Source: Alphaproteobacteria bacterium (GTDB lineage Bacteria > Pseudomonadota > Alphaproteobacteria > GCA-2731375). From it: a stretch of 64,000 bases of DNA. Where the stretch lies: NCBI GenBank assembly GCA_965232515.1, contig CBDDPY010000002.1:3968001-4032000 (forward strand). The letters are read 5' to 3'. This document shows, piece after piece, positions 19,944 through 24,900 of the stretch (the stretch's first letter is position 1; each line of letters opens with the position of its first letter). The notes beneath the pieces were generated by a model. It was not told the origin of the DNA, searched no databases, and worked only from the letters and a program-made list of their open reading frames with translations. The position numbers and the translations under genes were made by a program.

Positions 19944-20028
19944 GCTCGACCCGTCCCGCTCCCCCACCCGACCACCCATTGAGCATACTTCCGTGGGTGG
20001 TCGGGTGGGGGAGCGGGACGGGTCGAGC
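19944..20028. repeat. 35-bp perfect inverted repeat (MITE/REP-like hairpin)
   Basis: GCTCGACCCGTCCCGCTCCCCCACCCGACCACCCA, 15-nt loop, exact reverse complement. Confidence 0.9.
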
Positions 20029-20061
20029 CAAACACCACAATCTCGTTTGGGAGTTGCGTTG

Positions 20062-20553
20062 ATGCCCGACCCGATAATCCGCCCGGCCCGCCCCGAGGAC
20101 GCCGACGAAATCGTCCGCCTGGTCCACGCGCTCGCCGAATACGAAAACGAGCCGGCCGACATCGTGAAGCTGACGGCCGACATGGTTCGCCGCGACGCCT
20201 TCGGCGACCGCCCGCGTTTCGAGGCGCTTTTGGCCGAGCATGACGGCGCGGTCGTGGGCCTCGCCCTCTTCTACGAGAACTACTCGACCTGGCAGTCCCG
20301 GCCGGGCCTGTTCCTGGAAGACCTGTTCGTCGAGGAACGCGTGCGCGGGCTCGGCCTCGGCCACAAGCTCATGGCCGCGCTCGCCGCCGTCGCTGTCGAA
20401 CGCGGCTACGGCCGCATCGACCTCGGCGTGCTGCACTGGAACCCGACCCGCGACTTCTACCACCGCCTCGGCTTCCACCACATCGACCAATGGCTCCCCT
20501 ACCGCCTCGAAGGCCCTGCCATCGCCGACCTGGCGAACGAGGCGGAAACTTAG
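20062..20553 (+). CDS. GNAT N-acetyltransferase (SSAT-like)
   Basis: YSTWQSRPGLFLEDLFV..RGLGLG, VLHWN..FY. Confidence 0.92.
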   Translation: MPDPIIRPARPEDADEIVRLVHALAEYENEPADIVKLTADMVRRDAFGDRPRFEALLAEHDGAVVGLALFYENYSTWQSRPGLFLEDLFVEERVRGLGLGHKLMAALAAVAVERGYGRIDLGVLHWNPTRDFYHRLGFHHIDQWLPYRLEGPAIADLANEAET

Positions 20554-20576
20554 GAAAGCACGCCGCCGCCATTATC

Positions 20577-20646
20577 CGTCATCCTGGCGAAGGCCAGGAT
20601 CCACCTGCAGAATCAGCCGTGGATGCCGGCCTTCGCCGGCATGACG
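20577..20646. repeat. CGTC-tagged REP doublet, left of GIY-YIG gene
   Basis: CGTC-ATCCTGGC GAAG GCCAGGAT-CCA...TGG-ATGCCGGC CTTC GCCGGCAT-GACG. Confidence 0.9.
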
Positions 20647-20674
20647 AACAGGGGTCGATTCACTAGAGTTCGAT

Positions 20675-20968
20675 ATGTACGAGCCTGGCTACGTCTACAT
20701 CATGACGAACCGCCGCAATGGCACGCTCTACATTGGCGTAACGTCCGATTTGGTAAGGCGCGCCTACGAACACCGTACCGGTACCGTTCCCGGCTTCACC
20801 AAACGCTATAGCCTGAAGAAACTCGTCTACTACGAAGTGCACGGCGACATCGAAGCCGCGATCGCACGGGAAAAAGCCATGAAAAACTGGCGGCGCGCTT
20901 GGAAGCTCAAACGCATCATTGAGATGAACCCGGGCTGGCGAGATCTGTTCGACGACATCGCCTCCTAG
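20675..20968 (+). CDS. Stand-alone GIY-YIG nuclease
   Basis: GYVYIM...LYIGVT..L.RR..EH, AIAREK.MKNWRRAWK..IE.NP.W.DL. Confidence 0.93.
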   Translation: MYEPGYVYIMTNRRNGTLYIGVTSDLVRRAYEHRTGTVPGFTKRYSLKKLVYYEVHGDIEAAIAREKAMKNWRRAWKLKRIIEMNPGWRDLFDDIAS

Positions 20969-21010
20969 TTCAAGGCGGTGTTACGAGCCCAACTTCAAAA
21001 ACACCAAGTC

Positions 21011-21079
21011 CGTCACCCCGGCGAAGGCCGGGGTCCACCTGCGACTGCTGTATGGATGCCGGCCTACGCCGGCATGACG
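21011..21079. repeat. CGTC-tagged REP doublet, right of GIY-YIG gene
   Basis: CGTC-ACCCCGGC GAAG GCCGGGGT-CCA...TGG-ATGCCGGC CTAC GCCGGCAT-GACG. Confidence 0.9.
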
Positions 21080-21186
21080 ACGAGAAAGCTGTAACCGTTA
21101 GTGTCGTCCTGGCAAAGGCCGAAATCCAATCGCAGCATTAGCCATGGAAGCCAGCCTTCGCCGAGTTGACGACGTCCGGACTGCCC

Positions 21187-22263
21187 TCACTCCGCCGCGG
21201 CGATGGTCTCCTCGACCCGGCGCTTGGCATCGAACTCCTCGGCGACCTGCTGGTCCTGGTCGAGCAGCGCACCAATGTCGATGTTGGGATCGGTGAATTC
21301 GAGCACGCCCATCTTCACATAAGCGTCCTGCACCTTCTCGCTCCACAGCCCGATGTCGCGCACGACGGGCACGATGCGCGAGAACAGGCGCGAGCGGAAC
21401 AGCCGCATGGCCTCCGACTTCTCGACCCACTCGATGCATTCCTTCTCCGGCAGGCCCAGCACGCCCCAGAGCTCGGCCGAGGTAAAGCGGTCGCGCATGT
21501 GCAGGCTGGCCTCGATCACGAACTCCTCGCGCTCGGCCCGCTCGGCCTCAGTCAGCTCGGGGTAGTATTCGCGCAGCGCCAGCCGGCCGAAGGCGACATG
21601 CCGAGCCTCGTCCTGCATGACATAGGCGTTCACCGAGGCGGCGAGCGGGTTCTGGCTCATGTCGCGAATAGCGTGGAAGGCGGCCAGCGCCAGGCCCTCG
21701 ATCAGCACCTGCATGCCGAGATAGGTGAAGTCCCAGCGCTTGTCGTGGACGATGTCCTCCAACAGCGCCTGCAACGGCCCGGTGATGGGATAGGCCAGCT
21801 CGAACTTCTCGTGCAGCAGCCGGGAATAGGCCTCGACATGCCGGGCCTCGTCTATCACTTGCGTCGCCGCGTAGAACTTGGCGTTGATGTCGGGCACCTG
21901 CTCGACGATCTTGGCGGTGCAGATCAGCGCGCCCTGCTCGCCGTGCAGGAACTGCGAGATCTGCCAGGCCTGGGCATGGTGGCGCAGCTTGACCTTCTCC
22001 TTGTCGGTCAGCTTGTCCCAATAGGGCGAGCCGTAGATGCGGATCATCTCGTCCGGCATCATCATCGGGTTCTCGGGGTCCAGGTCCTGCGACCAGTCGA
22101 TGCGGTCTGCCGCGTCCCACTGCTGCTTCTTGCCCTTGTCGTAGAGCTTCAGCAGGCTGTCGCTGGCGTCCTCGTACTCCCAGGTGAACCGCACCTCGTT
22201 CTCGCCGTCGAGCTTCCACTCGGTCTGCTCGACCGGCAACGTATACCGATGCACTGATGCCAT
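21187..22263 (-). CDS. Ferritin-like diiron oxygenase (AurF/CmlI-like fold)
   Basis: HGEQGAL, DEARH twice, IEGLAL: two E...ExxH diiron motif sets. Confidence 0.85.
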   Translation of the reverse strand: MASVHRYTLPVEQTEWKLDGENEVRFTWEYEDASDSLLKLYDKGKKQQWDAADRIDWSQDLDPENPMMMPDEMIRIYGSPYWDKLTDKEKVKLRHHAQAWQISQFLHGEQGALICTAKIVEQVPDINAKFYAATQVIDEARHVEAYSRLLHEKFELAYPITGPLQALLEDIVHDKRWDFTYLGMQVLIEGLALAAFHAIRDMSQNPLAASVNAYVMQDEARHVAFGRLALREYYPELTEAERAEREEFVIEASLHMRDRFTSAELWGVLGLPEKECIEWVEKSEAMRLFRSRLFSRIVPVVRDIGLWSEKVQDAYVKMGVLEFTDPNIDIGALLDQDQQVAEEFDAKRRVEETIAAAE

Positions 22264-22376
22264 TCCCAAATCTCCCCGGCGTTGTGGCCCTCTAGCGTTT
22301 TCGCCTTGCGTGGTTTGATGTCCGTGTTTGATGTCTGCGGCGCCTGTTCCTCCCCTTGACATGCCCAGGCACCTTA

Positions 22377-24811: not shown

Positions 24812-24838
24812 GGCGCGCGACTCGGCTGCCTCTCAACG

Positions 24839-24869
24839 CGTCATCGCCGGATCAAGTCCGGCAATGACG
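24839..24869. repeat. Single CGTC-type REP hairpin
   Basis: CGTCATCGCCGGA-TCAAG-TCCGGCAATGACG. Confidence 0.75.
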
Positions 24870-24900
24870 AGGTGGGACAATGGCGTCGCGGGCACGGACC

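Follow-up and report, generated by a model that had tools for sequence, protein, structure and literature searches.

Single-domain GIY-YIG endonucleases of the Ssn family bind CGTC-tagged hairpins in single-stranded DNA (ssDNA), as reported by Chenal et al. (Nat Commun 2025, PMC11893778). The present study concerns a small stand-alone GIY-YIG nuclease gene (hereafter the ssn-like gene) and the hairpin repeats on either side of it, which lie in a 64,000-nt stretch of DNA (the window) from an alphaproteobacterium (GenBank assembly GCA_965232515.1, contig CBDDPY010000002.1, here C2, positions 3968001-4032000). Two public sequencing runs from a single study contain this stretch with 0 differences, and one of them may be its source. 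In the Ssn study, SsnA of Neisseria meningitidis (94 aa, single-domain GIY-YIG, CDD cd10448) was found to bind the NTS hairpin repeat (CGTCATTCCCGCGMAVGCGGGAATCYRG) solely as ssDNA and solely on that strand, and to cut a few nucleotides upstream (5') of the repeat, with the mutants Y6A, Y17A and E64A keeping binding and losing cutting. Four homologues including SsnA were purified, each of which cut ssDNA beside its own hairpin, and the hairpin pattern SRM was present nearby in 71% of homologues and on both sides in 42%. Knockout of ssnA gave 5-fold higher transformation with NTS-bearing DNA in Neisseria, and the authors likened the arrangement NTS-ssnA-NTS to an insertion sequence and suggested its domestication (PMC11893778).

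CGTC-tagged repetitive extragenic palindromes (REPs) had been described earlier by Di Nocera et al. (2013, PMC3733652), in the available text of which they are said to have no dedicated transposase. The Ssn partnership answers the question left by that work, namely which enzyme belongs to CGTC-tagged REPs. The original prediction for this locus, made from the window's sequence, had stated that no enzyme was known for CGTC REPs, which is true of the 2013 paper but was outdated by the 2025 report.

The locus is very probably a member of the published Ssn family with a hairpin variant specific to its genus. The idea that the nuclease is the dedicated partner of the CGTC hairpins, put forward in the original prediction, is borne out by four SRM matches around the gene, by the recurrence of the pairing among homologues, by genus-specific repeat copies and by the Ssn paper itself. 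The nuclease-repeat partnership is thus already known from the 2025 publication, and the locus adds a member and not a principle. The new findings are local, and comprise a genus-specific repeat type, a nuclease-repeat block that is missing in a sister genome, and hairpin doublets that are present or absent between congeners.

A GIY-YIG gene between tagged hairpin doublets

The 97-aa protein matches the Pfam GIY-YIG family (PF01541) over residues 5-78 (E 4.6e-16, 59.3 bits, cut-off 22.6), and GIY-YIG and T5orf172 were the sole families returned by the Pfam scan. Y19, G21, R29, H33, R65 and E66 are invariant and Y8 is nearly so in an alignment of 21 homologues, in agreement with the intact Tyr, Arg, His and Glu residues first noted for this stand-alone gene; from the sequence alignment, Y8, Y19 and E66 would correspond to SsnA Y6, Y17 and E64 at an offset of +2. 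The AlphaFold 2 (AF2) model forms one compact domain (pLDDT 91.8), with UPF0213 BH0048, Slx1 and the UvrC N-terminal domain as top structural matches, and BH0048 is the best PDB sequence match in a search with the family profile (E 2.9e-9). In a protein tree, the nuclease groups with 100 homologues, split from UPF0213-like paralogues at 100% support in the Shimodaira-Hasegawa-like approximate likelihood ratio test (SH-aLRT). A tblastn search of the window's genome (G000, 7.39 Mb; main contig C2, 65.5% G+C) found one gene of the Ssn clade, plus two matches of ~40% identity elsewhere. A homing endonuclease of the I-TevI type was considered and rejected, as the protein ends at residue 97 with no DNA-binding domain and the gene has no intron context; the structural match of the AF2 model to I-TevI is weak (E 1.3).

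The gene is flanked by two hairpin doublets (Table 1), at 28 bp (doublet 1 to ATG) and 42 bp (stop to doublet 2). Each half consists of CGTCA, a 7-8-bp stem, GNAG, the returning stem and TCCA, and the CGTC tags lie outermost in each doublet. The coordinates agree with those originally given for two elements of roughly 70 bp, each made of two inverted CGTC-tagged hairpins; both elements are present, but a third, decayed doublet further downstream had been overlooked. The published SRM pattern (HGTCWY N0-2 YYVSBRH N0-5 WNVSBRG N0-2 RNCYNB) has four matches in the window, which are the four flanking halves, two per side of the gene. The first halves of doublets 1 and 2 differ by the two compensatory pairs that had been noted at the outset (ATCCTGGC/GCCAGGAT vs ACCCCGGC/GCCGGGGT). 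Folded as ssDNA, doublet 1 reaches -26.6 kcal/mol (z-score -5.8) and doublet 2 -28.5 kcal/mol (z-score -6.2), with none of 200 shuffles equalling them. The third doublet folds weakly (z-score -1.7) and has no SRM match, and its right half alone passes the REP pattern described next, at 2 mismatches.

A REP pattern built from the four flanking halves was searched on C2 (7.33 Mb), giving 53 exact matches, which rise to 89 when 1 mismatch is allowed and to 98 when 2 are; with 3 allowed, the first 2 Mb contain 27 matches vs 1 after mononucleotide shuffling. All 8 stem pairs are Watson-Crick in 79 of the 98 halves, though three stem positions vary. Of the 98 halves, 18 are solo and the others make up 40 convergent doublets, whose spacers measure 13-18 nt in 21 cases, 32-34 nt in 17 and 42 nt in 2. 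According to this list of doublets, the present locus alone in G000 has two intact doublets bracketing a gene.

Some doublets have been copied whole. Among the short spacers, 18 of 210 pairs are at least 70% identical, and among the long ones 14 of 136, vs 1 and 0 after shuffling. Doublet 1 is 94.3% identical to a doublet at C2:1279139 with unrelated flanks, and two 87-bp doublets 2 Mb apart (C2:2092278-2092364 and 4051086-4051172) are 98.9% identical. The similarity of these two extends ~25 nt past one end, and the copied unit there may be larger than the doublet. Doublet pairs at least 90% identical are few (3 of 780), so there has been little recent doublet activity in G000.

Two side observations concern related hairpins in the same genome. 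Five solo halves (C2 near 2333571, 3284394, 5122866, 5402856 and 5551606) abut a common sequence of ~45 nt (...CACTTCGTTTGTGAACTCAGGGGATCCAT...), which points to a composite repeat with a single SRM half as one component. Within the window, the solo CGTC hairpin originally placed at 24839 exists at 24838-24870 (CGTCAT-CGCCGGA-TCAAG-TCCGGCA-ATGACG), but it is only loosely related, carrying the CGTCAT tag on both strands, lacking TCCA and folding at a z-score of -2.2, and it matches neither the SRM pattern nor the G000 REP pattern.

Pairing of nuclease and hairpin among homologues

The association of gene and hairpin recurs far beyond this genome. An ssn-like match occurs in 18 of 41 genomes (40 relatives and G000), with a patchy distribution (3 of 13 within one genus). 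Flanks of the close homologues carry CGTCAT-hairpin-TCCAG just upstream of the gene and its inverse just downstream almost everywhere, with a stem that differs by genome. In 21 loci of relatives, all 14 matches to the SRM pattern are near the gene and none is far from it; 8 of the 21 have a match on at least one side and 4 on both. A further scan, with each species represented by one genome, gave at least 577 stretches, 576 of them confirmed, from which the best 80 were used (many phyla, 54-68% identity), 76 of these with complete flanks. Within 150 bp of the gene (near), a generic detector (GTCR tag and perfect hairpin) found hairpins on any side in 66 of these 76 loci and on both sides in 49, with a density of 7.05/kb near the gene vs 0.49/kb elsewhere in the locus (14-fold). 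At the same distance, the SRM pattern is present on any side in 43 of the 76 and on both sides in 24, at 3.44/kb vs 0.077/kb (45-fold). The pairing of gene and hairpin is thus beyond chance.

The hairpins follow the protein tree to some extent. Among 101 homologues with six hairpin classes, 31 class changes are required vs 44-56 in 300 label shuffles; the tree is a quick one in which related sequences share labels, and the result therefore shows clustering, which is not proof of co-evolution. The canonical CCCGCG class goes with the gene through at least 10 phyla, while the exact published NTS consensus occurs in 5 of 103 homologous loci, including two (L020 and L051) with NTS on both sides of a gene whose product is 57-60% identical to the window's. 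The nuclease of the window and that of a sister genome (G001, a congener with an 81% complete assembly) pair at 97% SH-aLRT. The stem has changed within their lineage, because the other members of the group mostly carry CCGGGC or CCGGAC hairpins.

Could the block be an ordinary intergenic REP cluster, acting as a terminator or as an mRNA-stabilising bacterial interspersed mosaic element (BIME), with the nuclease gene as a chance occupant of a permissive gap, unrelated to the repeats? Convergent gene pairs such as the one around the block are common sites of REP accumulation (Di Nocera et al. 2013, PMC3733652), and the gap occupied by ssn in G001 is variable, with another gene in its place in G000. 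Such a coincidence is nevertheless highly improbable given the recurrence of the pairing in those 66 of 76 loci (from the best 80, in many phyla), the 14-fold (generic) to 45-fold (SRM) enrichment, and a sister GIY-YIG clade in which a different hairpin is found in 28 of 28 loci and SRM in 0 of 28. Chance clustering of repeats was rejected on the enrichment in the 76 loci together with the clade-specific pairing.

Several points weigh against assignment of the locus to the Ssn family. The layout differs from that usual among homologues, [+SRM at -31 to -70] gene [-SRM at +3 to +25]; here the nearest hairpins read (+,-) gene (+,-), placing the ssn-like gene between tandem doublets and not inside one, an arrangement seen by eye in just four other loci of the 80-locus set (L043, L077, L080 and, less cleanly, L078). 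The SRM pattern is loose, being enriched only ~1.9-fold in G000 as a whole (140 matches vs 66-79 in 5 dinucleotide shuffles). An NCBIfam scan of the protein returned nothing above cut-off, the sole match being the group I intron endonuclease model TIGR01453 (19.7 bits vs 56.05, residues 6-35), and a scan of 20400-21300 for sigma-70-like promoters found no site, an uninformative negative. RNA-library contigs from another organism, ~95% identical to the two neighbouring genes, include none over the nuclease gene or bridging the gap, although such contigs cannot show absence. Finally, the homology to N. meningitidis SsnA is indirect, and Ssn activity, strand and cut position would carry over from homologues at most 50-60% identical. 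Membership in the Ssn family, with a genus-specific hairpin, is still the strongly favoured assignment.

Table 1. Coordinates of the features at the locus (window numbering) and of two related nuclease genes elsewhere in G000 (C2 numbering).
Feature	Coordinates	Strand	Description
GNAT acetyltransferase gene	19993-20553	+	PF00583, E 1.2e-16
Whole intergenic block (doublet 1, ssn-like gene, doublets 2 and 3)	20554..21186	.	632 bp between GNAT and diiron genes
SRM/REP half 1a	20577..20603	+	CGTCA TCCTGGC GAAG GCCAGGA TCCA; exact match to genome-wide REP pattern, SRM match
SRM/REP half 1b, inverted partner of 1a	20620..20646	-	Doublet 1, 16-nt spacer, arms 86% complementary
ssn-like gene, single-domain GIY-YIG nuclease, 97 aa, ATG start	20675..20968	+	Open reading frame, PF01541
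SRM/REP half 2a	21011..21037	+	Stem ACCCCGGC, differing from 1a by two compensatory pairs; REP pattern, SRM
SRM/REP half 2b	21053..21079	-	Doublet 2 with 2a, 15-nt spacer; 96% identical to 1b over 28 nt
Third, degenerate doublet	21103..21172	.	77% identical to doublet 1; halves ~21103-21129 (+) and ~21145-21171 (-)
AurF-like diiron gene, convergent with GNAT gene	21187-22362	-	PF11583, E 4.4e-16
UPF0213-like GIY-YIG gene (L143/L025)	C2:5570397-5570735		
UPF0213-like GIY-YIG gene (L150)	C2:464518-464808		Internal TAA

An 85-nt near-perfect palindrome (window 19944-20028) is located directly upstream of the GNAT gene, with an ssDNA fold of -61.2 kcal/mol (z-score -13.5). Matches to it occur on both strands at 11 or more other places of G000 and at many places in relatives from the same family; it is a separate repeat family resembling miniature inverted-repeat transposable elements (MITEs).

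Repeat gain and loss between congeners

At up to 1 mismatch, the REP pattern has 89 matches in G000, 259 in G001 and 0-4 in each of 39 other relatives, with 0 matches to the reversed-pattern control in all genomes. Of the 39 other relatives, 16 have an ssn-like gene of their own, and the G001 nuclease is 78% identical to that of the window. The repeat variant CYGGC-GNAG-GCCRG is specific to the genus. REP halves in G001 are about three times as numerous as in G000 despite the smaller assembly, many lie at contig ends, and the stem variant ATGCTGGC is dominant. The comparison suggests that the repeat expansion is more recent in G001.

The whole block is an insertion/deletion difference between the congeners, and is accessory DNA. 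On contig C117 of G001, the GNAT and diiron genes (91% identical) have stops ~30 bp apart vs 632 bp here, with no repeat remnant between them, so the empty site looked for between these two genes was found in the sister genome. The G001 ssn gene is located with REP halves on another contig (C576, L002), a different locus from that of the G000 gene. The corresponding site in G000 (C2:1665890-1666448) keeps both flanks (85-89% identity) and is not empty, being occupied by a 125-aa gene and by other repeats. By sequence recognition we take this gene to be glyoxalase/VOC-like; G001 retains just its start-codon region. Comparison of 20 G001 repeat loci with G000 gave 8 with both flanks collinear and 12 that are one-sided or rearranged. 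The doublet is common to both genomes in 2 of the 8 (L124 and L127) and absent from G000 in 4 (L126, L128, L134 and L135), and the remaining 2 (L129 and L132) hold other sequence of different length in G000. No target-site duplication or clean junction could be resolved at the block or at the 4 polymorphic doublets, where alignments to the empty sites are too diverged; the doublet junctions cannot be placed because the surrounding intergenic DNA also differs.

A mechanism may be proposed by analogy with the four characterised homologues. The protein would bind the folded hairpin on ssDNA only, on the strand reading CGTCA-stem-loop-stem-TCCA, and would use the GIY-YIG Tyr/Arg/Glu site to cleave the DNA within a few nucleotides of the tag, on its 5' side. 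The original proposal that the nuclease nicks the hairpins fits the biochemistry of the family in part, but the expected substrate is ssDNA only and the expected cut is 5' of the hairpin, not inside it. In inverted doublets of 70-90 bp, each strand would offer the enzyme a single target, at the outer 5' end of the doublet on that strand; in single-stranded form, the top strand of the locus would be cut immediately 5' of 20577 and of 21011, and the bottom strand immediately past 20646 and 21079. By breaking ssDNA that is exposed transiently (in replication, in repair or as incoming DNA), the nuclease would restrict repeat-bearing ssDNA, and the same breaks would seed recombination or repair events by which repeats are gained and lost. 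The pair most likely persists as a partly selfish nuclease-repeat system.

The question posed by such loci is whether Ssn nucleases multiply the hairpins or merely use them. If they multiply them, as the original prediction had it, the nuclease would act like a REP-associated tyrosine transposase (RAYT), the block being the autonomous copy, and the gene-less doublets non-autonomous copies resembling MITEs or REPINs (the REP doublets that accompany RAYTs). This is possible but rather doubtful. The genome content is that of RAYTs and REPINs, with one gene copy vs 40 doublets and 18 solo halves, and subsets of doublets share spacer sequence, including the 98.9%-identical doublets 2 Mb apart. The congeners differ threefold in copy number, 4 of the 8 collinear G001 doublets are absent from G000, the congeners' ssn genes are at different loci, and the same hairpin class goes with the gene across many phyla. 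The resemblance of the architecture to insertion sequences was noted in the Ssn paper, but mobility is presented there, as far as its available text goes, as a hypothesis only (PMC11893778).

The chemistry presents a difficulty for multiplication by the nuclease itself. A HUH/Y1 (IS200/IS605-type) transposase match is lacking in the Pfam scan of the protein, and a chemical mechanism is missing, GIY-YIG enzymes only hydrolysing DNA. No covalent intermediate of HUH-type strand transfer is known for these enzymes; the spread of repeats would therefore need host repair or replication. The absence of a resolved target-site duplication or clean junction, with intergenic DNA at the polymorphic doublets that also differs, argues in the same direction, as do the little recent doublet activity in G000, the position of the gene between doublets and not inside one, and the single gene copy per genome.

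If the hairpins are merely used, the nuclease would have a domesticated host role as in Neisseria, trimming or restricting repeat-bearing ssDNA and modulating recombination near repeat-flanked genes, with the repeats maintained by the host. This alternative, too, can be held only tentatively. The effect of ssnA on transformation is the sole in vivo role shown for any Ssn member in the available text of the Ssn paper (PMC11893778), and the gene is single-copy, intact and 78% identical between the congeners. However, its patchiness (18 of 41 genomes; 3 of 13 in one genus) and the insertion/deletion difference between congeners fit accessory DNA better, and the repeats cluster at the nuclease gene and not, as far as examined, at a class of host genes. 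The multiplication of repeats and the Neisseria-like role do not exclude each other, each being a minority expectation. Whichever applies, a congeneric pair with a threefold copy difference and with presence/absence sites constitutes a usable natural experiment.

A second GIY-YIG clade and comparison with known systems

The Pfam search of G000 returned five GIY-YIG places, among which are two UPF0213-like genes (Table 1) that are 76% identical to each other and ~40% to ssn. UPF0213 structures are matched more strongly by these two members of a second clade (E 9e-13) than by ssn. Both genes are flanked by a longer hairpin, CCTCAY-CCTGAGGAGCGGCGNAGCCGCGTCTCGAAGG-RTG (CCTCAY-CCTGAGG...CGAAGG-RTG), of which C2 contains 18 copies at up to 4 mismatches, 4 of them beside the two genes. 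The clade was found in 26 of 300 further genomes of the class, giving 28 loci with complete flanks. The second-type motif is present within ~150-210 bp of the gene in all 28, on both sides in 21 and in the order [+] gene [-] in 18, with a density of 7.4/kb near the gene vs 0.61/kb elsewhere. The regular expression for this motif was written after viewing the loci and is loose genome-wide (1856 matches vs ~1300 in shuffles), so that for the second repeat only the contrast between near and far regions of a locus and the count of 31-mers are usable. Clade and hairpin are paired specifically. Among Ssn-clade genes, 50 of 95 are flanked by the SRM pattern and 5 of 95 by the second motif; among second-clade genes, the figures are 0 of 28 and 28 of 28, respectively.

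The terms UPF0213, cd10456, YhbQ and COG2827 are not mentioned in the main text of the Ssn paper (PMC11893778), and cd10456 and UPF0213 have no match in 12 of its 14 supplementary files. Nor is the pairing of the second clade with its hairpin described in that main text or in those 12 files. A literature search on GIY-YIG with REP, REPIN, MITE or UPF0213 found nothing beyond the Ssn paper. As a side observation, a fourth small PF01541 match (C2:836416-836619) is a 79-aa open frame ~150 bp from a tRNA-like sequence, with no tagged hairpins seen beside it.

It is conceivable, though at present speculative, that small stand-alone GIY-YIG nucleases as a class are the replicating or maintaining enzymes of hairpin-repeat families, as a hydrolytic counterpart of the RAYT/REPIN system. 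If so, the nucleases would make breaks in ssDNA, host repair of these breaks would spread the repeats, and a function would be supplied for the UPF0213 family. The UPF0213-like clade with its own hairpin may be a more useful lead than the present locus, and Ssn enzymes that recognise new hairpins have practical interest for cutting ssDNA at specific sites.

Among known systems, the published Ssn/NTS system is the closest to this locus. They have in common a single-domain GIY-YIG protein of ~95 aa, a gene flanked on both sides by SRM-fitting CGTC-tagged hairpins, tens to hundreds of further hairpin copies across the genome, and the conserved Tyr/Tyr/Glu residues. Unlike in the Ssn/NTS system, the stem here is CYGGC-GNAG-GCCRG and not TTCCCGCG, the copies are mostly inverted doublets, the gene lies between tandem doublets and not within one inverted pair, the copy number is modest (~100 halves), and the protein is known from sequence alone. 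Like the repeats here, members of the CGTC REP super-family (PMC3733652) are palindromes with a CGTC tag that frequently lie close together as inverted pairs, mostly in alphaproteobacteria. By contrast, no dedicated enzyme is reported for it in the available text of that paper, and the flanked nuclease gene here represents the partner identified later.

More distant comparisons involve the gene organization or the fold. The RAYT/REPIN system (REPtrons; Nunvar 2010, PMC2817692; Bertels and Rainey 2011, PMC3116915) likewise has a single-copy nuclease gene flanked by the genome's inverted hairpin doublets, recognition of the hairpin in ssDNA and a lineage-specific distribution, but here the fold is GIY-YIG, not HUH/Y1, and the tag is CGTC, not GTAG. 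UPF0213 proteins (BH0048, PDB 1zg2; EF2693, PDB 1ywl) and the Slx1 domain share the minimal GIY-YIG core and are the best matches among solved structures, but they have only 26-32% identity to the present protein and no repeat association described for them. GIY-YIG homing endonucleases of the I-TevI type share the GIY-YIG core and a patchy, mobile-looking distribution, but this protein lacks both a DNA-binding extension and the context of an intron or intein.

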